Source: an uncultured Planctomycetia bacterium
Lineage (GTDB): Bacteria; Omnitrophota; Gorgyraeia; Tantalellales; Tantalellaceae
Direction: 5' to 3'
Assembly: GCA_964572255.1 (NCBI GenBank)
Contig: CAZNEE010000002.1
Location: 121,129 to 185,128 of the forward strand
Length of the DNA stretch: 64,000 nt
A model generated the notes under the pieces. That model made no database searches and was not told the origin of the DNA. It saw only the letters and a program-made list of their open reading frames with translations. Position numbers and translations under genes: made by a program. Below, one piece after another: positions 5,316 to 46,103 of this stretch; position 1 is the stretch's first letter; every line of letters begins with the position of its first letter.

Positions 5316-8300
5316 TTAAGCCGCTGCTCTGACTCCTAATTCCCTGTAAAATTCTTTCTTGAGGAGTTCTCTATCAATGGGCTCTGCTTTTGGCATGAAA
5401 GTAAATACCCTCGGGCTATCTTCATCAAACTCCAGCCCTATCTCGGGATAACTCTTCTTCAGTTCACTGATCAAGACTTCGAACGGTAAAACTTTATTAA
5501 AGGCAAGCTCTAAAGCCATGTTAATCATATCAACGATCCTTATGTAATTTTCTTCATTCCCATTCTCCGGCCGCTTATTGATCTGTTCAGGATCGATCCT
5601 CACCAAAAGCGCCCTGTCTCCCGTTTTAGGATCATGTAAAGGCTTGAACGCTTCTTCTTTTACTATATCCTCATGCCCTAAAACGATGATGTTCGAAAAG
5701 TTGACTTTTTTATTATCTGCTTCTTTCAGCAGCTGTCCGGCGAAATCATCCCCCTCTTTCCTGACAATATGGATATTTTTGATCCCGAGGCTTCCGGCGA
5801 TCCTGTATATCTCGCTTAAAAGCGGTTGTATTATATCGGCCTGTTCTTTTGGTATCCAGCTGGTCTCCAGCCCGATCATAATATTTTGTTCGTCATTTTT
5901 GACCCCCCCGCCAAGATCCCCATTTTTAACTTTATCGGCATAAAACCTGAGCATATCCATGAAAAGCATTGCCATCTCCTGAGCCCTGGTAAATTTGCCT
6001 TCTGTCCGCTTCCCTGCGGAAGGTTTATGTCTGATAAAATATAACGCGCTGTTATACACATGCTTGCTGTCCTTATAACTCGTTTCGACATCCATGATAT
6101 CGCCAGTGATCCCGCTCAATATTCTATATTTTCCGGCCGATCTGAGTATCTCGGCCACGGCGTCAATATCGCCCAGCTTTTCATCACGGGTTATGCACGG
6201 ATCATTCCATATCATCGCTATTCCATCATCATGGAGCATGACCGGCAATGCGCGGGCAAAGCGACTTAATGCGTCTCCCCCGATATCGCCGTCCCAATAG
6301 CTTGCAAGTTTTTTGTGCCAGGCGGGCACACTCTCTCCCGGCGAATCGATCAAGTTAGGCATGTTCCAGATGATCCTGTCGAAAACGCCGTCAAAAACAG
6401 GTTCTCCGTTTTCTGAAATTATATTATCATGGGTCACGGTCTCGATATCAAACCCGGCTATCTTAGCGGTCAGGCGAGTGTTTGCCGCTGCAAGCGGATT
6501 TATATCAACGGCATAGATCTTTCTGCCTGTTTTAAGATACGCTATCCAGCTGTCTATGCCCGAACCGGAACCCGCGATCAAGACCCTATGCCCCTTATCC
6601 AATCCTATATCATTCCACATAGCAGGGATTATCTTGGCATCAGAAACCGTCATTTCCGCCGGCGTATATACAGTGGGAAATACCGGGATAATGATCTTCT
6701 TTTTGCCTTCTTCTTCTTTAAAAATTCTTTCAAAATCCTGGTCGGATAATGTTTCCGGGGTAAAGGTCTGTATATCTATTTTTCCTGTCAGGGTATCAAC
6801 CCCGATATAATTATAGATATCTGTTTCCTGGCGGTTGAAATTTGAAATAAGCTGGCCTTGTCTTCTTCTCTCAGCGGCAAAAGAAAGCAGCAGCTTCTTG
6901 TCCGCATTCCTTCTTGTTATGAAATCTTTCCATTTCTGCGCGGCCTCAGGATCGGTCATATCGGGAAAAACAAAATTGTAAGGCGTAAGATCCAGATAAT
7001 AGATTTCATCCTGTGCGGGAGCGCCTTTGACAACAGGAAATATCCCTATTAAAAGACCCTGTTCATTATGTAAAAACTCGAATTCCCTTGTTTTCTCTCC
7101 GGCAAGTTCTCTATAAAGCACATCTAATCCGCGCGGAGTTCCGTACATCATAGATGTTTCGGGGATCCTTATCGTGCGAATGATGGTATTACTCCACCCT
7201 TGTCTTTCGGAAATTATACCGGCCTTATTGATCTCCAATGCCTGCAGGAACTCCCACGAAGCCATGTCTTTATAAAAAGCTGCGTCAGCCTCCTGCGCCT
7301 TGACCAATTTTGTTCCCGTTGCAACTGCTTCTTGTTTCTTGCCTGGAATGAAACGAACTTCAGATCTTATCTTTCCCTCGATATTGTCCAGTTCATCCAA
7401 AACATAATCACCAAAGATTTTTACTGCCTTTCCTTTTATGGGAACATCCGATACAACAAATGTACTGTCATCAAAAACTTTTATGAACTTATGAAAACGT
7501 TCTTTATTGTCAGTATCTTCGATATATACAGGAATTTTTTCCGCAGAATAAGCCTCTCCGACAACGGCTTCGAACGGTTTAAATCCCCTGTTTTTCCTTC
7601 TGAAATCAGGCCCTATATACTCATCTCCTTTCAGTTCAAAACCCAGATCTTCCACAACACTCACCAGGAAAGGATTCTGAACAAAAATGCCAAATTCTAT
7701 GTAGTAAGAACCGTTGTAAATAGCCCCCTGTTTCAGTCCGGACAACAGAACTTCCAGGAATGCCCGGGCGTACCCTCTATTCCTGTAAAGATTATCAACA
7801 AAAATACAATCGATTTCCGTGTCATTAAATCTGATATAACCAACAGGATCCCCATCCCCGCCGTAAAAATCCAGACTGCCATGATTCTCGGAAGACATGG
7901 GGAAATATTCGAAGAACAGTTTTTCATTATTGGGTGTAATAACATGCCCTGAGTAGCCTTCTTCTTCGAAAATGCTATTGCAGACTTCAGTTATTTCAAT
8001 AACCTCAGGATATTCCTCGGCAAAAGTCGCTGCTGTCAACCTTCTCTCTTTTAATGACCTCAAATAAGGCCCGACCATGATAGAACCAGTGTGATCGCCT
8101 TTCATCCAATAAGCGCCATCAATATAAGTAACAGGGGTATTATTCTCTAAAATAGCGACCCAATTATGCGTATAAGGCTTATCAAAGCCCCAATAATATC
8201 CTCCGACAACTTCCACTCGGCTGGGCGAATCCCCTCCCAATGGTAATCCATATTTCCTGGAAATGATCTCCGCCAGAGCTAAGGCGGAAATATAGCATTC

Positions 8301-11300
8301 TTTTACCGGGTATCCTTTTTTCACTTTTTGCCGCATAAGTTCCGTAAAACGATTTTCAATAGCTTTGAGATGCAAATACAAATTATCATCCGATGGCAGC
8401 ACTGAATGCGGATCTTGAACCTTGCCGTCACCGTAACCCGGAGGTCCGGGTTCGGATTTTAATTCGTTCTCTCCATCATACACCCTTATGCCCGAAGCCC
8501 AATCACTCTTATCGTACGGCCAAACTGTTACTTTCTTTCCTCCATGCCTAACTCCGATATAATATGGTTGCCCCATTAACGTTATGCTTCCATCTTTTCC
8601 GATCTTTCTTTCTGCAGGTATTGAGGGTTTTTTACGTACCACCTTTTTTCTCGGCTTTTTGACCATCTCATGCTTTTTACGTTTCTTTGTTCCTTTATTA
8701 TGGGAATTATAGCTCTCGATCAATCTTTCTACGGAATATTCTCCTGCAACTTCTTCCTCACTTTTTTCTTCCCCCTTCATCCTGTACCCAAGATGCGCGA
8801 CTTCATGGTTAAGCCATCTGGCATAAGAAACTAGATCATTTCTTCTGATCATTCCCAGAAATTCAAGAACTTTGCGCGGGATCAGCAGATTGCAGGAACG
8901 CGCAGCGCCATTTTCATCTCTCCAGGACCCGGGGTGAGTGATAAGTCTGAACGAACCTTTTTCCGGAAAAGAGATATTGCTTGTTTCTGCAAATTTATAA
9001 AGAACATCATAGAAATATTTCTCGGGGGGGCTATGTATATGGATCTCTTCTTCTATGCCCCTGCTTCTCATCTCGCTTAAGATATCTTGCCCTAATCCTT
9101 TTTCTGTTGAGATCTTATGATCTCTTTCAAATACATCCCAATAAACCCCCCATGTTTTATTGATAACGGCGTGCTGCTGGGCATTTAACACATACTGAAC
9201 CCATCTGCCGTCTTTTTTTACTAAAGCAATCGCGGGCGGATCATCGGAAGGAATGCCTTTTTTCTTATCCGATAACCTTGGCGATTCAGGCATTTTCCGT
9301 CCCCGGGAATAATTAAAACCTCTTCCATATCTGTCTCCGCTTCTTCTTTCTCCATCAATGTAAAACGTCAATTTCGGGCTGACTTCCTTGACTTTCACTG
9401 AGACAGCTTCACCTTCACTAAATCTTTTGCCTCCGCAAAGACTAAGGGGCATGAAACCTTTAACTTCTCCCTCATAAACAAGTTCATATCCCGCCAATGA
9501 ACCATCGCTCCTGCGGCGAGACTCTCTATTTACGAACACCTTAACTTCCTCTCCCGATCTCTCAGCTGCCTCCAATTCATACAATAGATCTCTTTTTCTT
9601 TCATTCGCCATCATCTGTCTTCGGCGAATAGAGAACCTGGGTTCGGGAATTATCCCCCTCCATTTACAATCGACGAGAACAACGTTCACTTTTCTGCCAA
9701 GCATATCATCAGGATTAGTTCCATAGGGGCATTCTCTCGAGCTAATGCGTCCTTTTATCTCCTTGAATTCAACCACGTAGTAGTCAAATTTGCCTCTATA
9801 ACTGTAATGATCTTCCACGATCTTGACCCTAAAAACTTTTTCAGGATCATCTTCCCCCTGCTTTATCTCTCTGATACCTAAATGATAATTAAAGACGGAT
9901 TTTGCTTTTTCGTCCAACTTGTCCAAAATAGCCTTTGATATTTTTTTATATTCATCTTCTTCTTTGCTGACCAAATAAGAAAACTCTGCGGGTTTTTCTA
10001 TTCTGCGCCTTGCATCAACAAACCTGTTCAAGTCCGCTTCTGCAATACAGTTTTCCGCTTTTCTTTTTGCTTTTGGCAAACCATGTTTTTTTAAATATAA
10101 AAAAGCCTCCAGGCTTGACAGCCTGCCTAAGCCGTCTATTTTCCCTTCAGCAGCCAACTTCATTCTTTCTTCGATCCTTTCATCTAAAAGGACTATTATC
10201 CTAATCTTTTCCCGGAAAAAAGCTTCCCTCTCTCCGAGCTTTAGGGCTTTCCATGCCCTATCGGAAAGTTTGAACTTATCACGTCTCCTGCTGTCGCTTT
10301 TCAGTAATTTACGTTCTTCCAAAAGGTCAATGACGTCTATAAGTTTGATCCGCTCATCATGAATCTTTTTCCTTACATGATCTCTCATTTCCCCTAAGAC
10401 ACGATCGGCTTCTTTCTTTGCATCTATTTCCGGCAATAATTCCGGGCGTTCATCCAAAACTTTATCGAGAAACACCGTAAAATGATCCGCCAGATCATCA
10501 TCACCCATGCTCCTAAGCTCTCCCAGGCGCCTGCGCATTTCATCAACCGCATAAGATGCTCTTTCAGGTTTCTCTTCACGTATAATCTCAAGGATATCAT
10601 TGAGCTCATCTCTCGTTCTTTCTCCCGAAGAATGAGTATCTTCACTTCCTTTATCCTTATCCGCGGGCTGGTCTGTGTGGGGCGTACCCGGGCCGAAACC
10701 GTCGGTCTTATCTTTATTGTACAAAACCTTAATGCTGAAATTTGGACTGCCCCCCTTTAAGGGGCCTGTCCTTCCGCTCAACATTATTTCTTTCACATCG
10801 GCGTTAAACTTTTCAGGAGCATCTCTCGGTATCCGCGGCTTGCCTCTTATTTCTATTAATACGTCTTCAACCGACTGAGCCACAACGCCGATTACCTTAT
10901 TCCCGATCTTAACGACCAGTTTTTCGTCTATTGTAATAACGGTGCCTTCCCTTAACTCTTTGACAAGCTCCAGTTCCTCTGTCCATTCATTACGTTCTAT
11001 CTTATATTTATTCTTTGTTCCTTCAACATGCTTTAAACGGAGATAAGCCAGCGGAAATACTGTTTCTATGTCTCTGATCTCGATCTCGCCCATCACATCA
11101 TAACTCCAGAAGCCTTCACCTGTCTTAGCGTCATTAATATCCTCGAAGCTTTGCCACTCCCGGCTTTTTTCGTAATTAAGAAGATCTCCGGAATAGAAAG
11201 TGACCTTTATTTCGTCAGCGAAATATTTTTTGAACACGTGTAGGTTATATAGCCAGGGTGTATCTATATAAATTTCATTGATCCCGTTTGTGACAGCAAA

Positions 11301-19095: not shown

Positions 19096-20264
19096 CATAT
19101 CCCGGCAATGCTGCCTGAACAAAAACCGCATTTGCCATCTTTAGAAACATGATTTTCCAGGACCTGGTATCCCATTCTTCTTATAACAACTTTTTTACAC
19201 TTCGGACAGATCGTATCTTCATACCCCATCCCGGGAACATTGCCGATATAAACATAATGAAGCCCCTCTTCAAGGGCGATGTCCCTCGCCTTCTTCAGCG
19301 TCTCAACAGGGGTGGGATAAAGAGATCTTAATTTGTATTGCGGCCAGAAGCGCGAAAAATGCAAGGGGACATCAGAGCCGACATTGGATCTTATCCATTT
19401 GACCATCTGCCTGATCTTGCTCATATCATCATTAAGAGTCGGAACTATTAAATTTGTCAGCTCGATCCACATACCGCCTTGTTTCATGGTGAGTATACTG
19501 TCTAAAATATTATTAAGACTCTGGGCGCATACTTCCCGCAAATATTTATCGTCGAAGCCTTTAAAGTCGATATTCGCAGACTCCACATATTTAGCAGCAA
19601 GTTTCGCGGGTTCTTTATTTATTTTTCCGCCTGTTACCATTACATTATATATACCTTTTGTTTTTGCGAGTTTCGCCCCCTCGATCATATACTCATAAAA
19701 GATAACAGGCTCAGTATAAGTATAAGCAATGGACCTGCATCCGTTCATTGCTGCGCTATCGACAAGATTTTTCACGCTTAAACGATTATTGATAGTCTCT
19801 TCAGGCGAGCGCTGCGATATTGTCCAGTTCTGGCAATATTTGCAGCGGGAATTACAGCCGGCAGTAGCTATGGAAAAAGACTTGCTGGCCGGGAGCACAT
19901 GATACATGGGCTTTTTCTCGATAGGATCAATATGCGCTGAGCAAACAAGTTCATATACAAGAGAGTATAACTTTCCGTCGACAGGTTCCCGAACGCGGCA
20001 AAACCCTCTCTGCCCGTTCGAAAGCGTACAATAATTGGGACACAGAACGCATCTTACCGCTTCATCCCCCATCTTTTCATAAAAAAGGGCTTCATGCATT
20101 CCGCGTTTTTCACCGATAGCGGATAAAGCCTGATATTTTGAAAGAGCGCCAAATGCGTAGAGCGATGCCCCTATACATACACCGGCTTTCGCGCATTTAG
20201 CCAAAAACTCGCGTCGGGTAACTTTCTTATGCCAGATGTTCTCAAGATGTTCAAATACTTTCAT
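19056..20264 (-). CDS. amrS: AmmeMemoRadiSam system radical SAM enzyme with twin-arginine (Tat) signal peptide
   Basis: CPNYCTLSNGQRGFCRVR and GCNSRCKYCQNW motifs typical of the AmrS family. N-terminus TRREFLAKCAKAGVCIGASLYAFGALS is a Tat-type signal. Confidence 0.8.
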   Translation of the reverse strand: MKVFEHLENIWHKKVTRREFLAKCAKAGVCIGASLYAFGALSKYQALSAIGEKRGMHEALFYEKMGDEAVRCVLCPNYCTLSNGQRGFCRVREPVDGKLYSLVYELVCSAHIDPIEKKPMYHVLPASKSFSIATAGCNSRCKYCQNWTISQRSPEETINNRLSVKNLVDSAAMNGCRSIAYTYTEPVIFYEYMIEGAKLAKTKGIYNVMVTGGKINKEPAKLAAKYVESANIDFKGFDDKYLREVCAQSLNNILDSILTMKQGGMWIELTNLIVPTLNDDMSKIRQMVKWIRSNVGSDVPLHFSRFWPQYKLRSLYPTPVETLKKARDIALEEGLHYVYIGNVPGMGYEDTICPKCKKVVIRRMGYQVLENHVSKDGKCGFCSGSIAGIWGTPHQGTPRKIE

Positions 20265-20292: not shown

Positions 20293-22023
20293 TTATATCC
20301 ACAAAATATAATTTAATAAAGTACCGACGACGATCGCAGTTATGATCATTAAGCACGCCGATTTAAACATATCCTTAGCGCCGAGTTCGCGCACCATCAC
20401 CATAAAAGTCGCCATGCACGGAAAATATATAGCAAGTATCGTACAGGCAATAACAAGCTGCTTTGTGGTAAGCTCAAGCGGCGCGAGCATCCCTACCGCT
20501 ACATCTTTTCTTAAAAAACCTACAAGCAAGGATGATATGGTCTCTTTAGGAAGCCCCCATAAACCGGTTAATATCGGAGAAAATGCCGCTGCTAAAAAAT
20601 CAAACACTTTAATAATATATAAAATATTAACCACAAGAACGCCCAATAGGACCATCGGCAAAGCTTCTTTTATGAACTCCGAGACCCTCATCCATAATTT
20701 TTTCAATACTGCCATAGGCTGAGGCAGTCTATACGGCGGTATCTCCCATAATATTTCAGGGCTTTTACCCTTGATGAAAAAATTCATTAAAAGCCCTTTC
20801 AAGATAAGGATACAAAAAAGGATCCCGAACACAAGCGCGACATACTGGCCTCCCCTCTGGCCGACAAGACCGGTGATCATGGCGATCTGAGCCATACAAG
20901 GAACAGCGATGGCCATTAAGGTAGCGGCGATAAACTTCTCTCTTCTTCCTTCTAATAGTCTCAATGCCATTGCCCCGGGAACATTACATCCGAGGCCGAG
21001 GATCATCGGGATTATCGCATAACCGTGAAGCCCCAAGCGGTGCATAAGATTATCAACTTGAGTCGCAAGCCGCGGAAGGTAGCCAAAATCTTCAAGCAAT
21101 CCCAAGGCAAAATAAAAGCTCAAAATATAAGGGAAAACTGCCGCGATCGGCACGTATAGACCTGTTGTCAATACACCGAACGACTGTCCGAAATCTATCC
21201 CTCCGTTAATAAGTTTTCCTATCAAAATATCATGGATCACGCCTCCGCTTCCCAGCAAGGAACTTAATTTTATCATTAAAGGAGACCATATATTTTCGAA
21301 AAACGGATCAAATATGTATCCTATCAGGCTTTCGCCTATAAACCTTATGACTAAAAAAGAAATAAATATTACTACAATAGCCAGAGGAAGACCGGTCGTG
21401 GGCCTTGTGCTGATATCCTCAAAACGTTCGAGCAGCGTATGATGGTGATGGTGAAGTGTCTGTGATGATTCAACGATCCTTCCCATCTCCTCCCACTTCT
21501 CGTCTTTTGACAGAACCGGAAAGGTCTTCGCCTCAGCAAGCTTTAATCTTTCGACTAACTCTTTGATGCCTTCACCTGTTAACCCGCATGTAGGGACAAC
21601 CGGAACTCCCAATTCCCTCTCCATTTTATTAACATCTATCTCTATGCCTTTATGATGGGTTTCATCCCACATATTCAAAGCAACAATAACCGGAATGTTT
21701 CTTTCTCTCAATTCTAAAGTCAGAAAAAGATTCCTCTCTAAATTGGTCGCGTCAACTATATTTATGACCATATCCCCTTCTTGGAGCATTTCGATAGCGA
21801 CCTGATCGGCCCTTGAAACAGGCTCAAGATTATATACACCCGGTACATCCACCACAAGGGCCATCTCTTTTTCTCTTAGCTTAAGATATCCTTGAGAAAA
21901 ACCGACTGTTGTGCCGGGATAATTTGATACCGTCACTCTCGCGCCGGTAAGCCTTGAGAAAATAGCGCTCTTCCCCACATTAGGGTTGCCCATTAGCAAT
22001 ATTTTTTTTTCATCTCTATTCAT
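20293..22023 (-). CDS. feoB: ferrous iron transport protein B
   Basis: G-domain MGNPNVGKSAIFSRLTG and DVPGVY, followed by a polytopic membrane domain. Contains an HHHHH run. Confidence 0.9.
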   Translation of the reverse strand: MNRDEKKILLMGNPNVGKSAIFSRLTGARVTVSNYPGTTVGFSQGYLKLREKEMALVVDVPGVYNLEPVSRADQVAIEMLQEGDMVINIVDATNLERNLFLTLELRERNIPVIVALNMWDETHHKGIEIDVNKMERELGVPVVPTCGLTGEGIKELVERLKLAEAKTFPVLSKDEKWEEMGRIVESSQTLHHHHHTLLERFEDISTRPTTGLPLAIVVIFISFLVIRFIGESLIGYIFDPFFENIWSPLMIKLSSLLGSGGVIHDILIGKLINGGIDFGQSFGVLTTGLYVPIAAVFPYILSFYFALGLLEDFGYLPRLATQVDNLMHRLGLHGYAIIPMILGLGCNVPGAMALRLLEGRREKFIAATLMAIAVPCMAQIAMITGLVGQRGGQYVALVFGILFCILILKGLLMNFFIKGKSPEILWEIPPYRLPQPMAVLKKLWMRVSEFIKEALPMVLLGVLVVNILYIIKVFDFLAAAFSPILTGLWGLPKETISSLLVGFLRKDVAVGMLAPLELTTKQLVIACTILAIYFPCMATFMVMVRELGAKDMFKSACLMIITAIVVGTLLNYILWI

Positions 22024-22255
22024 TTACAACCTCTACCATTATCTTCTCGGCCATGCCGTGACCAATAGCTACTTTGGCCTTCCCCACCAGCACTGTCACA
22101 GGCCCATGCCAAAAATGCGAGCTTATTTTCGTGATCTCTTTGCCCGGACGTATGCCCAGCGCTTCGAGTCTCCTTGAAACTCCATGCCCTCCAAGGATCT
22201 CCCTAACTATTGCCTTTTGATCTGCTTTTATTTTTGTTAAATGCATCAAGCCCAT
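22016..22255 (-). CDS. feoA: ferrous iron transport protein A
   Basis: 79 aa SH3-like FeoA; gene overlaps the feoB start. Confidence 0.8.
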   Translation of the reverse strand: MGLMHLTKIKADQKAIVREILGGHGVSRRLEALGIRPGKEITKISSHFWHGPVTVLVGKAKVAIGHGMAEKIMVEVVNE

Positions 22256-22281: not shown

Positions 22282-22611
22282 TCACAACTTTTCCAAAACA
22301 TGTTCGAGCCCCTCTTTAAAGAGTACCTCGATATGTTCATCGTTCAAAGAATAATATGTGCGCCTGCCCGCTTTTCTGTATCTCACAAGATCCAGATCTT
22401 TAAGCGCACGCAGCTGATGTGAAATGGCTGAATGGTTCATCTCCAAAAGCCTGGCCAATTCTACAACACATAGCTCCGCTTTGAACAAGGCAAAAATTAT
22501 CCTCGCCCTTGTAGGATCGCCTAGTACGCTGAACGTACGGGATAATTTATCCATTACTTCTTGAGAATTCATGCTTTTTCGTATATCGTCTATAAGCTTT
22601 TTTCTGGTCAT
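22282..22611 (-). CDS. ArsR/SmtB family metal-responsive transcriptional repressor
   Basis: wHTH ELCVVELARLLEMNHSAISHQLRALKDLDLV. Start moved to the internal Met because GGAGG lies 5 nt upstream of ATG at 22611. Confidence 0.8.
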   Translation of the reverse strand: MTRKKLIDDIRKSMNSQEVMDKLSRTFSVLGDPTRARIIFALFKAELCVVELARLLEMNHSAISHQLRALKDLDLVRYRKAGRRTYYSLNDEHIEVLFKEGLEHVLEKL

Positions 22612-22636
22612 ACTGCCTCCATGTATATATAACAAT

Positions 22637-27465: not shown

Positions 27466-27542
27466 TGGTGGGCGCAGGGGGACTCGAACCTCCGACCTCA
27501 TGCATGTGAGGCATGCGCTCTAACCAGCTGAGCTATGCGCCC
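27466..27542 (-). tRNA. tRNA-Val (anticodon CAC)
   Basis: Cloverleaf GGGCGCA-TAGCTCAGCTGGTTAGAGC-G-CATGC-CUCACAU-GCATG-...-TTCGAGT-...-TGCGCCC-A-CCA; 77 nt with CCA encoded. Confidence 0.8.
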
Positions 27543-27584
27543 AGTTCCAACTAAGGGCAGGAAAGTTGTTTACCGCATTTTTCA

Positions 27585-27661
27585 TGGTGGGGGCACATGG
27601 ACTCGAACCATGAACCTACTGATTATGAGTCAGTTGCTCTAACCACTTGAGCTATGCCCCC
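27585..27661 (-). tRNA. tRNA-Met (anticodon CAT; elongator type, tRNA-Ile2 not excluded)
   Basis: GGGGGCA acceptor, anticodon loop CUCAUAA. The anticodon stem ACTGA/TCAGT lacks the three G-C pairs of initiator tRNA. Confidence 0.75.
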
Positions 27662-40709: not shown

Positions 40710-42002
40710 CTAAACACTTGTAAGTTCTTTATTTTTAATAACTAATGTTGCTTCTTTATCCGCGCTTTTTGGAGTAAAATAAATTATTTGCCCCTTAGGA
40801 AGCATAAAATCCATCGATCTTACTCTTACATACTCCCTCGTATATCCCTCAATAAAGTCATTCCCTGCTTTATTCTCCAGCAAAACCTCAACCTCTTTGG
40901 ATAAAAATTTACGGCAAAATCGATCTTGAAGTTCCTCCCCCAATTTTATTAATTTTTCCACCCTCTCTGCGGAAATCTTATCAGGAAGTTTATTTTTCAT
41001 CTTTGAAGAAAGGGTCCCCTCCCTGTCGCTATACTTAAAAACATGCAATCTTGAAGGTTCTAATTCTTTGACTAACTTAAAAGTGTCCTCAAAATCTTCT
41101 TCTTCCTCGCCGGGAAATCCCGCAATAACATCCATAGTTATGCCGGCAAAAGGCATTCTCTCTCTGATACGATAAACTAATTTTCTGAACTGATCAGCAT
41201 CATACCTTCTTGCCATGGATCTTAAGATCCTGTCCGATCCGCTCTGAAGAGGTATGTGAAGATGATGACAGATCTTGCCTGAAGCGGCTACGGTCTCTAT
41301 CAGCTCGTCTGTAATATGGTTTGGCTCTATCGAACTTATTCTAAACCTGTAATCGCCTTCAATGGCATTGATCTCTTTTAAAAGATCCGCAAGCGTCTTA
41401 CCTCCTTCGCCTTTCCATGAACCGATACAAATGCCTGTAAGCACGATCTCTTTATACCCATGTTCTATAAGCCTTTTTGCTTCTTTGATTATCTCCTCGG
41501 CCGACCTGCTTTTTGACGGTCCTCTTACGAGCGAAACTTTACAATATGAACAATTTTGGTCACATCCATCCTGTATCTTTATAAAAGCTCTTGTGTGTGA
41601 ACTGAAATTTGTTATCTCTTCTTTTAAATCACTTCTTTTGCACTCTAATCCGTAATGCGCACCGATAAATAGCGGAAGATTCATCTTTTCGCTATTTACG
41701 ACGATCTCGTCAACCTCCGTCATCTCTAAAAGAGACTTGATATCCCCGTCAAATACCGCCTTACAGCCTGTTACAACGACCGTCGCGTTGGGATTTTCCT
41801 TTTTCAACCTCTTTATCAGCCTCCTTGTCTTGGCATCCGCTTTACCGGTAACAGTGCAGGAATTAACAACAACAATGTCCGCCGGAGCTGAAGGGGATTC
41901 CACAAATCCCACTTTCACAAGATTTTCTCTTAAGACCTGAGATTCATATTGGTTGACTTTGCAGCCCAATGTCCTGATCGTAAATTTATATGTTGAATTC
42001 AT
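40710..42002 (-). CDS. radical SAM methylthiotransferase (MtaB-like)
   Basis: N-terminal UPF0004 domain with CKVNQYES, radical SAM GCDQNCSYCKV, and a C-terminal TRAM-like domain. Confidence 0.75.
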   Translation of the reverse strand: MNSTYKFTIRTLGCKVNQYESQVLRENLVKVGFVESPSAPADIVVVNSCTVTGKADAKTRRLIKRLKKENPNATVVVTGCKAVFDGDIKSLLEMTEVDEIVVNSEKMNLPLFIGAHYGLECKRSDLKEEITNFSSHTRAFIKIQDGCDQNCSYCKVSLVRGPSKSRSAEEIIKEAKRLIEHGYKEIVLTGICIGSWKGEGGKTLADLLKEINAIEGDYRFRISSIEPNHITDELIETVAASGKICHHLHIPLQSGSDRILRSMARRYDADQFRKLVYRIRERMPFAGITMDVIAGFPGEEEEDFEDTFKLVKELEPSRLHVFKYSDREGTLSSKMKNKLPDKISAERVEKLIKLGEELQDRFCRKFLSKEVEVLLENKAGNDFIEGYTREYVRVRSMDFMLPKGQIIYFTPKSADKEATLVIKNKELTSV

Positions 42003-42729
42003 AATCCAAAACAGAAATTAAAAACAGGCCTGCTGTATCGCTTTTTAAAACCCTCCATCCAAGCGATACATGCCTGCAATTTTTCCCGGAAGCGAGACTG
42101 ATCTCTTCCGGCGTAAAATCCCCTTCCGGCCCAACAAAAACAATGATCTTGCCGGACTTAAAATCCCCTACTGCTTTTTTCAGGGAAACAGTTTTCCCCG
42201 ATAAACACGCAAAAAGAGCAAGATCGTACCTCTCTATTTCTTCAATCGCTTTCTTGAACGGTGTGACCTCGCTTACCGCCGGTATATCGGCTCTCCCGGA
42301 TTGTTTCGCGCTTTCAATAGCAAGTTTTCTCCATCTTGAAACTTTTTTTTCTCCCCCGCCTTCGTCAGGCCTCACAATGGTTCTACCTGTAACAAGAGGG
42401 ACGATCCTTTTAACTCCCAATTCGGTAGCTTTTTCAACGATATAATCCATCTTGCCTTTTTTAGGAATCGCCTGAGCCAAAACTACTTCCGATGTTTTTC
42501 CTGAAGAAGGAGTTTCGATCTTTACTACTTCAACAGTGGCTTTTTTACTTTTTGGATCTATTTTGTTAATAAAACCGGTATATTCATTCCCGGTGCCGTC
42601 AAAAATAATTACCTTGTCGGAATCTTTCAATCTCATCACATCGATCGCATGATGGAATTCTTCTCCCTCTATAAGGATCTCATTTTTTTTTGTATTGATC
42701 TTCTCTTTTGAAACGTAGAATCTGCTCAT
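41986..42729 (-). CDS. rsmE: 16S rRNA (uracil1498-N3)-methyltransferase
   Basis: RFYVSKE...GEEFHHAIDVMRLK N-terminal PUA-like domain plus SPOUT fold. Confidence 0.8.
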   Translation of the reverse strand: MSRFYVSKEKINTKKNEILIEGEEFHHAIDVMRLKDSDKVIIFDGTGNEYTGFINKIDPKSKKATVEVVKIETPSSGKTSEVVLAQAIPKKGKMDYIVEKATELGVKRIVPLVTGRTIVRPDEGGGEKKVSRWRKLAIESAKQSGRADIPAVSEVTPFKKAIEEIERYDLALFACLSGKTVSLKKAVGDFKSGKIIVFVGPEGDFTPEEISLASGKNCRHVSLGWRVLKSDTAGLFLISVLDYEFNI

Positions 42730-44207
42730 TATTCTTTTTCACCAAAAACTTCAGCCGTAAAAATGTATATTTCACACCCTCCGGTTTTCCAGGCATCCAT
42801 TGGCATCCCGGCTTTATGCGCGCAAAGGCTATTCATGAACTCTTCCCTGGTCCATCCGGTTTCAGTAGCAACCTGTGGAAGATACACGCCGCTCCTCCAT
42901 CCCGTGCGTACCATCACCCCATGTTTACCGACTTCGATCCTTTCATAATCATCGATCCTTTCCATCGGAGAAAGCGCGGAGATCTCGATATCTATATCAT
43001 CCATTTCCTCAAGCCTGACAGGCGAAAATCTGGGATCTTCCACAGCAGCTGCGATCGCCATATCGCGTACAGCCAAGTAAAGAGGTCCTCTGGCAACCAT
43101 GTTGCCGATGCATCCTCTAAGCTGGCCGCCTTTATGCAGCGTAACAAAAGCTCCCATATCCTGCTTGAGGGCCTCATCATCAACTTTCACTGCCAGGGTT
43201 TTGCCTGTTTTGAGATGATGAATAATCGCATCTCTCGCGATCTTTAACAGTTCTTTTCTCTGCTGGTGGTTGAACATGCCGGTCTCCTTTTCCTGTAACT
43301 CGTGACCCGTATCTTGTGGTTTTCGTTTTATGAACGCCGCGCTGAGATATCCTACAACACTTTGCTTCATCCCGGAAGTATCGCCGGAATTTGCGTACTT
43401 AAATATTTGAACTTCATCGGCGCCGAGCTTCTGCGATGCAAGCATGGTCGCATAAACCGCACCAAACCCGCACATGAGTTCGTGACGTTTCCTCTCGCTC
43501 TCATCATACAATAGGTCCGGTTTGAATCTTTTTATATTGCTGATGGTCTCTTTATCCCTTCTATTCGCTTCATCGTAAGGCAAATAATGGCACATGTCCG
43601 TACTTCCGATCATGAGATAATCGTCTCTTCCTTTGACCGCATCATAAACGGCATCGGCAATTATGCGGCTGTTCTCTCTTGTCTGGTTCCCTATCGCAAG
43701 TAAAACCGCTTCAGCATCCTTAAAAGCCACCTGAATGAAAGGTGTTAACATCTCTACGGAATTTTCATCCGAAAAAGCCTCGGGAAGACTGAATATCTTT
43801 TCGCTCGAGGAAATAAGCTTTTTTGATATTTCCTTGTTAATTTTCAAAGAGCCCAACGGAGTCACAAAAGCGTCTTCAGTAAAAACAGATATCCCGTCAT
43901 AATATTTCCTATGCGAAAAACCCACTACGATAACAACTTTGGGCGACTGCGGCATGGCTGCTTTATATCCATAAGCTGCTACATGGCCTGAAAACCTGAG
44001 ACCCGCGTGAGGTGAAATGAAACCGATGATTTTTCCGTCAATCTTGGCGGGTGTTGCCGCTTCAAGATAATAGTTGATCTCCCGCCTCAAAACATCCGGA
44101 TCAGCTGAATACCATGTACCGGCAAGATCCGCTTTTTTCTCACTGGCTTGCGAACAAGAAAAGCTGAAAACAGTAATGAATATCACCAAAACAAAGCGTT
44201 TTAACAT
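42729..44207 (-). CDS. AmmeMemoRadiSam system fusion protein: AmrB (Memo-like) fused to AmrA (AMMECR1), with Sec signal peptide
   Basis: ISPHAGLRFSG and STDMCHY are Memo motifs. LRGCIGN marks the AMMECR1 core. N-terminus MLKRFVLVIFITVFSFSCSQA|SEK is a signal peptide. Confidence 0.8.
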   Translation of the reverse strand: MLKRFVLVIFITVFSFSCSQASEKKADLAGTWYSADPDVLRREINYYLEAATPAKIDGKIIGFISPHAGLRFSGHVAAYGYKAAMPQSPKVVIVVGFSHRKYYDGISVFTEDAFVTPLGSLKINKEISKKLISSSEKIFSLPEAFSDENSVEMLTPFIQVAFKDAEAVLLAIGNQTRENSRIIADAVYDAVKGRDDYLMIGSTDMCHYLPYDEANRRDKETISNIKRFKPDLLYDESERKRHELMCGFGAVYATMLASQKLGADEVQIFKYANSGDTSGMKQSVVGYLSAAFIKRKPQDTGHELQEKETGMFNHQQRKELLKIARDAIIHHLKTGKTLAVKVDDEALKQDMGAFVTLHKGGQLRGCIGNMVARGPLYLAVRDMAIAAAVEDPRFSPVRLEEMDDIDIEISALSPMERIDDYERIEVGKHGVMVRTGWRSGVYLPQVATETGWTREEFMNSLCAHKAGMPMDAWKTGGCEIYIFTAEVFGEKE

Positions 44208-44249: not shown

Positions 44250-45173
44250 TTAATAGCTATGGGTCTTAACGAAATCTATCACTTCATCTATCTTCGCATC
44301 TGCGATCGATATGCATGTATCAGCACAGCCGTAATAGATCCTGATATTCCCATCTTTCACTATTGCGGAACTCGCAAAAACAACATTCGGCACATCCCCT
44401 ATACGCTCATAAGGCTCTGTCGGAGCTAAGAGATAATCTTTTGTTCTGTAAAGGACCTTCCACGGTTTTTCAATATCAAGAAGCGCGCCTCCGACATAGT
44501 AAAGATATCCGTTACAGCTTGTCCATACGCCGTGATAAATTAATAGCCATCCTTCATCCGTTTCTATCGGTGCCGGGCCCGGGCCTATCTTTGTTGACTG
44601 CCAGCTGCTTCTTGTCGTGCCGAAAACAAACCTATGGCATCCCCAATGCGTGAGATCAGGGCTTGTCGAGTAGAACATATCGCCGAAAGGCGTGTGCCCT
44701 CTGTCGCTGGGCCTGCTTAACATGGCGAATTTACCGTTTATCTTACGCGGGAAGATCACGCAATTACGGTTCGCGGGAAGAGTCAGGTTCTCTTTCTGGC
44801 TGAATGTTTTGAAATCCTTTGTGGTCGCCATGCCGATCATCGGCCCCTGGGGCGAATCCAGACACCAGGTAAAATAATAGGTGTCGTCTATTTTTGTCAA
44901 ACGCGGGTCATACGTCCTCTCTTTCACCTCAAGGTCAGGATCGCTGTTTTCCAGTTTCAGGATATCCGGGTCTATATCCCATTTGATCCCGTCCTTGCTG
45001 AACCCGACATGCATCGTGAAATTGAAATCGATCTCATCCACACGAAAAATACCGGCATATCCGTCTTTAAAGGGAACGACGGCGCTGTTGTGAATACTGT
45101 TCGCTCTTGGCACCGCTTTTGCGGTAATGATAGGATTGCCTTTATAACGTTTAAATACTGTTTCATTTGCCAT
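44250..45173 (-). CDS. glycoside hydrolase family 130-like beta-propeller protein
   Basis: GNPII...YDPRL... pattern shared with GH130 mannoside phosphorylases/hydrolases. Confidence 0.5.
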   Translation of the reverse strand: MANETVFKRYKGNPIITAKAVPRANSIHNSAVVPFKDGYAGIFRVDEIDFNFTMHVGFSKDGIKWDIDPDILKLENSDPDLEVKERTYDPRLTKIDDTYYFTWCLDSPQGPMIGMATTKDFKTFSQKENLTLPANRNCVIFPRKINGKFAMLSRPSDRGHTPFGDMFYSTSPDLTHWGCHRFVFGTTRSSWQSTKIGPGPAPIETDEGWLLIYHGVWTSCNGYLYYVGGALLDIEKPWKVLYRTKDYLLAPTEPYERIGDVPNVVFASSAIVKDGNIRIYYGCADTCISIADAKIDEVIDFVKTHSY

Positions 45174-46027: not shown

Positions 46028-46103
46028 TGGTGGAGCTGAGGGGGATCGAACCCCTGACCTTCTGATTGCGAACCAGACGCTCTTCCAGCTGAGCTACAGC
46101 CCC
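46028..46103 (-). tRNA. tRNA-Ala (anticodon CGC)
   Basis: GGGGCUG acceptor with the G3:U70 identity pair; anticodon loop UUCGCAA; CCA encoded. Confidence 0.85.

Follow-up and report, generated by a model that had tools for sequence, protein, structure and literature searches.

The Memo and AMMECR1 protein families, whose conservation extends from archaea to humans, have links to human disease, and to our knowledge neither of them, nor the radical S-adenosylmethionine (SAM) enzyme that partners them in bacteria, has an established biochemical function. In the canonical AmmeMemoRadiSam system of archaea, Geobacter and others (families TIGR04335, TIGR04336 and TIGR04337) the three genes co-occur, and the proteins start directly with their domains and have no membrane partner. 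The eukaryotic MEMO1 and AMMECR1 are separate, cytosolic or nuclear proteins without a radical SAM partner. Here we describe an AmmeMemoRadiSam system encoded in a 64,000-nucleotide (nt) stretch of DNA from the metagenome-assembled genome of an uncultured Omnitrophota bacterium (GenBank assembly GCA_964572255.1, 498-kb contig CAZNEE010000002.1, positions 121,129 to 185,128), referred to below as the window. It holds the same three families with intact catalytic motifs, but differs from the canonical systems in four respects. AmrB (Memo) and AmrA (AMMECR1) are fused in one protein, AmrBA, with a predicted general secretory (Sec) signal; the radical SAM enzyme AmrS has a predicted twin-arginine translocation (Tat) signal; a membrane protein with 14 predicted transmembrane (TM) segments and a domain resembling spermidine synthase (SpeE) is added; and amrS and amrBA are split by 22 kb.

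We consider it probable, at roughly 70%, that the AmmeMemoRadiSam system to which amrBA contributes the Memo-AMMECR1 half has been relocated to the outer side of the cytoplasmic membrane. Comparison of sequences across genomes supports placing the window locus within a widespread exported variant of the system, rather than treating it as special to the window. The families themselves are known; export signals on all parts, combined with an outward SAM-fold membrane partner, are apparently undescribed, and the exported variant is potentially important. In the literature, as far as titles and abstracts show, AmmeMemoRadiSam was named only in passing mentions in gene annotation. Nothing relevant was found there on Tat-exported or periplasmic radical SAM enzymes, on secreted AMMECR1 or Memo proteins, or on membrane proteins resembling spermidine synthase. 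A description of an exported AmmeMemoRadiSam variant was likewise not found, a prior mention in Burroughs et al. 2019 being possible.

The amrBA gene (42729..44207; this and all other window features given below lie on the minus strand) is an open reading frame (ORF) of 492 amino acids (aa) with an ATG start and a Shine-Dalgarno-like GAAGGGA 7 nt upstream. Its Memo half (residues 25-292, 43332..44135) matches NCBIfam TIGR04336 (AmrB) with 233.7 bits against a cut-off of 26, and Pfam Memo (PF01875) over residues 26-290 with 179 bits against a cut-off of 27. The AMMECR1 half (residues 319-488, 42744..43253) matches TIGR04335 (AmrA) with 180.5 bits (cut-off 99) and Pfam AMMECR1 (PF01871) over residues 321-488 with 192 bits (cut-off 25). 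It also matches archaeal PH0010 (PDB 1vaj; E = 4.9e-35), with which it has the AMMECR1 fold and the LRGCIG motif in common. Human MEMO1 (3bcz, 7kq8) is homologous to the Memo half (E = 1e-13), and alignment to 3bcz places H67, H99, D204, H207 and C246 of AmrBA at the MEMO1 metal ligands H49, H81, D189, H192 and C244, a His/His/Asp/His/Cys site common to both proteins. All five ligands, and the AMMECR1 core LRGCIG (R364-G368), are invariant in an alignment of 62 homologues. The AlphaFold2 model (predicted local distance difference test, pLDDT, 92.5) has a helix at residues 2-18, the first Memo strand at residue 23, Memo at 23-294 and AMMECR1 at 314-489, with a disordered linker (pLDDT <50) between the domains at residues 299-308 (43284..43313).

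The original prediction had read this ORF as a single 492-aa AmrB-AmrA fusion, and it was right in this: both domains score far above the curated cut-offs and the motifs it quoted (ISPHAGLRFSG, STDMCHY and LRGCIGN) are present. By sequence, AmrBA truly belongs to the AmrB and AmrA families, and its locus is a genuine AmmeMemoRadiSam system. The fusion itself is ordinary for Omnitrophota, since all of the best 120 database homologues, every one of them from this phylum, are fused likewise; it is already annotated as such at JGI and NCBI. What sets AmrBA apart from its eukaryotic counterparts is that it is a predicted secreted fusion. No second, cytoplasmic copy of amrA, amrB or amrS was found in the window, and a scan around amrBA for promoters and terminators gave nothing above shuffled controls.

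The N-terminus of AmrBA is MLKRFVLVIFITVFSFSCSQA followed by SEKK, and both domain profiles begin beyond it, the Memo profile from residue 25-26. Residues 1-21 (44145..44207) read as a predicted Sec signal peptide for signal peptidase I, with an n-region MLKR, an h-region FVLVIFITVFSF, a c-region SCSQA and cleavage between SQA and SEK, an assignment made from the sequence and the matching segments of homologues. The segment thus shows the features looked for in a Sec signal: positive charge in the n-region, a hydrophobic stretch of about 10-15 uncharged residues, and small side chains at -3 and -1. Signal calls were made with a simple home-made heuristic; 9 of the 42 window ORFs passed it, mostly evident secreted or membrane proteins, as did 107 of 113 full-length close AmrBA homologues whose extension is 15 residues or longer, their cleavage sites lying at most 8 residues from a conserved ADLAG. 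The extension varies freely in sequence among homologues and keeps a K/R start, an uncharged hydrophobic run and a small-x-small site. The consensus at the mature start is A-x-A-K-x-ADLAG, the conserved K-x-ADLAG-x-WY coming right after the small residues. At greater distance, about 123 of 150 representatives (the best 150 after clustering at 50% identity, 36-54% identical to the query) have a signal-like extension and about 20 begin directly with the Memo domain. What is conserved is the character of the extension and not its sequence. Conservation among homologues, a check named beforehand, thus came out in favour of the signal. The Sec signal originally proposed is supported, with recognisable n-, h- and c-regions outside the Memo profile; its supposed A-x-A-like cleavage site does not, as the site is S-Q-A, with Ser at -3 and Ala at -1.

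Two other readings of this N-terminus were rejected. A lipoprotein modified at C18 was discarded, as the residues before the cysteine (S15-F16-S17) do not form a lipobox, tested as [LVI][ASTVI][GAS]C, and the cysteine is not conserved; lipobox-like sites are present in some distant homologues, for example in loci L030 and L070. A database entry (P0001) starts from a GTG at V7 and so loses the charged n-region, but a mis-called start in our gene model was dismissed because the ATG has the Shine-Dalgarno-like element and homologues start with MKKR or MLKR.

The partner gene amrS (19056..20264) encodes an AmmeMemoRadiSam radical SAM enzyme of 402 aa that matches TIGR04337 from residue 61 onwards with 352 bits (cut-off 220) and PF04055 (radical SAM) with 61.6 bits. 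The CX3CX2C motif (C137/C141/C144) is invariant in the homologue alignment, as are two further cysteine clusters, one N-terminal (C72/75/79/89) and one C-terminal (C353/356/379/382). The nearest characterised relatives by hidden Markov model (HMM) are the activases of glycyl-radical enzymes, PflA and NrdG (TIGR02493, 2e-10; TIGR02495, 3.4e-10). AmrS scores far below the cut-offs of these families and differs from them in its extra N- and C-terminal cysteine clusters, its signal peptide and the lack of a glycyl-radical enzyme partner. Residues 1-48 (20121..20264) are a predicted Tat signal with T16-R-R-E-F-L, an h-region AGVCIGASLYAFGAL that is weakly hydrophobic and rich in Gly, Ala and Ser, K43 in the c-region and an A-L-S/A site. 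The N-terminal 60 residues score 19.0 bits against TIGR01409 (TAT_signal_seq; cut-off 16.7), and a Pfam scan of the same residues listed no Tat-signal family. Among 103 full-length close homologues from Omnitrophota the motif is RR in 70, RK in 25, RG in 2 and RH in 1, and the n-region (L..IW.K..TR[RK]DFLKK) is unusually conserved for a signal peptide.

With its CX3CX2C motif and two four-cysteine clusters AmrS would be a cofactor-rich protein, of the kind for which Tat export is usual. It resembles the Tat-exported iron-sulphur (Fe-S) enzymes, such as hydrogenase small subunits and DmsB-type proteins, in combining a twin-arginine signal with several Fe-S clusters. The Tat signals of those enzymes are bound by dedicated chaperones, and the n-regions of chaperone-proofread Tat substrates are conserved. 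We know of no radical SAM enzyme among the established Tat substrates. The Tat signal had been proposed for amrS from the start; the profile score above its cut-off, and the recurrence of the motif in Omnitrophota and many other phyla, uphold it. AmrS is the only convincing Tat-type protein of the window, where amrS is present in single copy. Elsewhere, two loci have tandem amrS paralogues (L001, 5693-6752 and 6967-8140; L051, 6952-8077 and 8080-9238).

To place these signals in a wider setting, species-representative genomes were scanned with an AmrS alignment, and the resulting 80 loci, from about 25 phyla, were searched with HMMs of the window proteins and their homologues. Three classes of AmrS N-terminus were found. 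A twin-arginine signal occurs in Omnitrophota, Acidobacteriota, Thermodesulfobacteriota, Zixibacteria, Eisenbacteria, KSB1, Verrucomicrobia, Planctomycetota, Lentisphaerae, Poribacteria, Elusimicrobia, Ignavibacteriota, Chloroflexia and many Bacteroidales, the last mostly with K-R. A strongly hydrophobic N-terminus without RR, Sec-like or an anchor, is present in many Omnitrophota (among them L003, L005, L009, L011, L017, L018, L024, L036, L037, L040, L042 and L057) as well as in WOR-3, Chlamydiae and metagenome-assembled genomes of Clostridia. No extension is present in any of the archaea, in Geobacter and Desulfuromonadales or in some Bacteroidales. Hydropathies of the h-region on the Kyte-Doolittle scale are 1.6-2.4 in the RR class, 2.7-3.7 in the Sec-like AmrS and 2.2-3.9 in the AmrBA signals; the lower values of the RR class are as expected for genuine Tat signals.

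The signals of the two partners co-vary. Counting only loci in which AmrA or AmrB lies in the same locus as AmrS, an AmrS signal is accompanied by a signal or lipobox on AmrBA or AmrA in 25 loci and by none in two (L010 and L021, where AmrA is separate), whereas AmrS without a signal is accompanied by a signal in no locus and by none in three, all Bacteroidales (Fisher p = 0.0025, which overstates the support because the loci share ancestry). The contrast within Bacteroidales is informative despite shared ancestry: L039, L062 and L074 are without signals, and L029, L043, L059, L063, L066 and L078 have both. The first three are of the canonical type, together with the archaeal loci L054, L055, L061, L068, L071 and L075 and the Geobacter-type loci L060 and L077. 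A survey of AmrAB fusions and signals across genomes had been named as a check on the export reading, and the 25 loci against two support that reading. The existence of exported and cytoplasmic systems side by side in Bacteroidales, and of fused and split gene arrangements, makes export directly testable.

Clustering of the neighbouring ORFs in the 80 loci showed that the commonest neighbour of amrS is not AmrBA but a protein of about 710-760 aa with many TM segments. In the window its gene (16713..18989) starts 66 nt downstream of amrS and encodes a polytopic protein with seven TM segments on either side of a spermidine-synthase-like SAM-fold domain. It matches NF037959 (fused MFS/spermidine synthase) with 72 bits (cut-off 40) and PF01564 with 94 bits. 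The gene adjoins amrS in 38 of 63 signal-bearing and none of 15 signal-less loci (p = 1.3e-5, likewise inflated by ancestry). In the AlphaFold2 model (pLDDT 86.6, predicted TM-score 0.86) the SpeE-fold domain extends from residue 243 to about 500, between TM7 and TM8. Foldseek aligned this soluble domain with the SpeE structures 1uir, 7xif and 1inl at target-normalised TM-scores of 0.72-0.77, and the sequence match to SpeE has E = 5e-19; in the Foldseek search of the whole 14-TM protein the soluble domain alone was matched, with no match for the membrane part. The membrane partner differs from SpeE, and from the plant putrescine N-methyltransferase that evolved from SpeE, in that the domain sits between two seven-TM bundles, with a predicted outward orientation. 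The helices next to the soluble domain are flanked by K/R-rich loops (QRHVESMRAKK before TM7, NRRRRGKR after TM8), and the positive-inside rule places the domain outside by 27 against 9 K/R (about 3:1). The same vote is returned for 107 of 117 Omnitrophota homologues and for all 19 from other phyla.

A label of spermidine synthase, or polyamine aminopropyltransferase, was rejected for this protein. Where aminopropyltransferases have GGGD/EG, the domain has GGGVGG, which is also the consensus of 60 homologues, and in the window protein the sequence H-L-G-D-P lacks the first Asp of the amine-binding D-x-x-D-P; both the acidic residue that selects decarboxylated SAM (dcSAM) and the first amine-site Asp are therefore absent. 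The domain retains E325 and D357, which bind ribose and adenine. A change from Asp to Ile at the equivalent position switches the cofactor of plant putrescine N-methyltransferase from dcSAM to SAM. The domain is more likely to bind SAM than dcSAM, judging by these residues.

Three independent predictions, the Sec signal of AmrBA, the Tat signal of AmrS and the modelled topology of the 14-TM protein, thus agree on the compartment. The original prediction had all three components leaving the cytoplasm, and it gains support because the signals of AmrBA and AmrS co-vary across loci and because the predicted topology puts the SpeE-like domain on the same side of the membrane. Two kinds of variant protein bear on the arrangement. 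In P0023, P0047 and P0083 the AmrBA signal is replaced by an N-terminal CxxC...CxxC zinc ribbon and one TM helix, the arrangement expected if the catalytic part lies across the membrane from a cytoplasmic N-terminus. A natural triple fusion, AmrS-AmrB-AmrA, of 838 aa (entries P0472, P0522 (NCBI MDX9805340.1) and P0526, one of them from JGI) has one N-terminal hydrophobic segment; its domains are joined by no hydrophobic stretch, and an A-x-A site is not obvious. The single hydrophobic segment implies that the AmrS, AmrB and AmrA domains function on one side of the membrane.

If the system is exported, AmrBA would cross the membrane unfolded through Sec, be cut after A21 and take up its metal outside. 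AmrS would receive its Fe-S clusters in the cytoplasm and cross folded through Tat, and the membrane protein would present its adenosyl-binding domain on the same outer side, the GGGVGG motif being compatible with SAM and not dcSAM. The four domains might then act jointly on an envelope substrate, for example a lipid, an isoprenoid or an envelope polymer; the most speculative step is a role of the membrane protein in supplying AmrS with SAM outside the cytoplasm, or in methylating the product. An extracytoplasmic substrate would be in keeping with export, and an export signal on every component narrows the search for it to the cell envelope. We offer only tentatively, and with more doubt than confidence, the full scheme of extracytoplasmic radical SAM chemistry, in which a Tat-exported AmrS, a Sec-exported AmrBA and a 14-TM exporter or presenter of SAM act on an envelope substrate. 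If true, this would be the first radical SAM system to work outside the cytoplasm, and it would offer a way into the function of the Memo and AMMECR1 families; export by itself would challenge the view of radical SAM enzymes as strictly cytoplasmic.

Several observations weigh against export. About 19 of the 80 loci have the strongly hydrophobic, Sec-like AmrS N-terminus without RR, and the Sec route fits poorly with the export of an Fe-S enzyme in folded form. The second arginine is replaced in 28 of the 103 closest AmrS homologues (K in 25, G in 2, H in 1). Two loci of Syntrophobacterales type (L010, 457-1138; L021, 95-752) pair a Tat-signal AmrS with a separate AmrA that has no signal, a pairing that may reflect hitch-hiking export of AmrA. 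The loci are not phylogenetically independent, and the Fisher p-values overstate the support. In the triple fusion, the charges on either side of the hydrophobic segment do not point clearly to an N-in orientation. A search of the window for TatA found none, and neither tatA nor tatC is present in its 64 kb; TatA was found in another Omnitrophota locus (L002). The immediate neighbours of amrBA, rsmE and mtaB, encode cytoplasmic RNA-modifying enzymes. Finally, we are aware of no demonstration that the periplasm offers SAM or a low-potential reductant, and we know of no case in which the co-substrate SAM occurs outside the cytoplasm.

Among the alternatives the best surviving, though still unlikely, is that the N-termini are uncleaved signal anchors, so that AmrBA, and perhaps AmrS, would be tethered to the membrane with their catalytic domains outward instead of being soluble in the periplasm. 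TM anchors without a cleavage site are seen in the AmrS of L040, L056 and L057, the zinc-ribbon variants of AmrBA have a TM helix, the partner is an integral membrane protein, and the triple fusion combines one hydrophobic segment with no obvious A-x-A site. On the other hand, the window AmrBA and most of its homologues combine a short h-region (12-15 residues) with small side chains at -3 and -1, immediately before the conserved mature start, which is typical of cleaved signals.

Rather less probable again is a system that stays in the cytoplasm, either because the N-termini keep the proteins on the cytoplasmic face of the membrane (N-out, C-in) or because the RR motif is vestigial, as on NarG. 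SAM and a low-potential reductant, on which radical SAM chemistry depends, are both found in the cytoplasm. The relaxation of RR to RK, RG or RH in 28 of the 103 close homologues, the Sec-like AmrS N-termini, by which a folded Fe-S protein could not be exported, the ambiguous flanks of the triple fusion and the cytoplasmic neighbours rsmE and mtaB would all fit such a system. It is countered by the charges of the signals themselves: K/R residues lie N-terminal to nearly all of the hydrophobic segments, acidic or neutral residues follow them, and signal-peptidase sites are found in the c-regions. Moreover, one and the same side is indicated by the Sec signal, by the Tat HMM and by the topology that the positive-inside rule gives for the 14-TM protein (K/R about 3:1), and the truly cytoplasmic systems have neither the extensions nor the membrane protein.

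The gene order around amrBA needs separate comment. Downstream of it lie rsmE (41986-42729), whose start overlaps the amrBA stop codon, and mtaB (40710-42002), and the order amrBA-rsmE-mtaB-cvpA-x-dnaG-rpoD is kept in L082-L084 at 52-62% identity. Nucleotide-base modification is reportedly among the contexts proposed for Memo proteins, by Burroughs and colleagues in 2019. That AmrBA would act independently of AmrS, in the modification of rRNA or tRNA bases with rsmE and mtaB, is nevertheless very improbable: the overlapping codons, the conserved order and the 22 kb to amrS speak for it, but a secreted protein could not reach cytoplasmic RNA, amrS is intact and the sole copy in the window, rsmE/mtaB neighbours occur in only 4 of the 80 loci, all Omnitrophota, and the whole amrS-amrBA-membrane gene cluster precedes rsmE-mtaB in other Omnitrophota, which makes the adjacency inherited synteny and led us to reject a functional link, the synteny being lineage-specific.

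The genes amrS-amrBA-membrane gene-rsmE-mtaB are contiguous in the Omnitrophota loci L005, L009, L011 and L018, and contiguous amr clusters are also the rule in other phyla. In the clade of the window, ArsR-feoA-feoB-amrS-membrane gene occupies 16.7-22.6 kb and the run beginning with amrBA-rsmE-mtaB extends from 44.2 kb downwards; other genomes keep both halves, at 52-72% identity, and the distance of 21-25 kb between them. The separation is thus best read, from this comparison of gene orders, as a lineage-specific split of an ancestral amrS-amrBA-membrane gene cluster and not as functional independence. The earlier statement that amrBA is unlinked from amrS holds for the distance of 22 kb (22,465 nt), and the arrangement is a derived split of genes that are contiguous in other genomes. 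Upstream of amrS lie genes for an ArsR-family regulator (22282-22635), feoA (22016-22255) and feoB (20293-22023), the last directly upstream with a gap of 28 nt. The order ArsR-feoA-feoB-amrS is found in three Omnitrophota genomes, those of the window, L086 (4430-6774) and L087 (4459-6967). The position behind feoAB may be functional, linking iron supply by ferrous iron uptake to amrS, or may be a by-product of the rearrangement.

Two other families were observed next to amr genes, neither of them present in the window. A DUF362 (PF04015) protein of about 300-390 aa, in most cases with a twin-arginine signal of its own, is encoded just upstream of amrS in 11 of the 80 loci (L016, L020, L022, L027, L032, L033, L034, L044, L045, L047 and L064). 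These span Acidobacteriota, Zixibacteria, KSB1, Poribacteria and others, and four have a DUF6599 neighbour. Directly upstream of amrBA in the Omnitrophota loci L082 (5580-5963) and L084 (5500-5892) lies a gene for a small FMN_bind (PF04205) protein that is anchored in the membrane and bears the flavinylation motif VDTVTGAT (D-T-V-T-G-A-T); no homologue was found in the window or the 80 survey loci. The DUF362 and FMN_bind proteins are possible outer-face reductants or electron carriers in a minority of loci.

The window contains a few other features of note. A GH130-family (beta-1,2-mannobiose phosphorylase-like) gene (44250-45173) ends 42 nt upstream of amrBA, a position taken by an FMN_bind or ArsP gene in related genomes. 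Directly downstream of amrS and the membrane protein gene is a giant ORF of 3767 aa (5316-16619) with a signal-like N-terminus, whose public gene call has Pfam pentapeptide-repeat matches. Genes for tRNA-Val(CAC), tRNA-Met(CAT) and tRNA-Ala(CGC) are located at 27466-27661 and 46028-46103.

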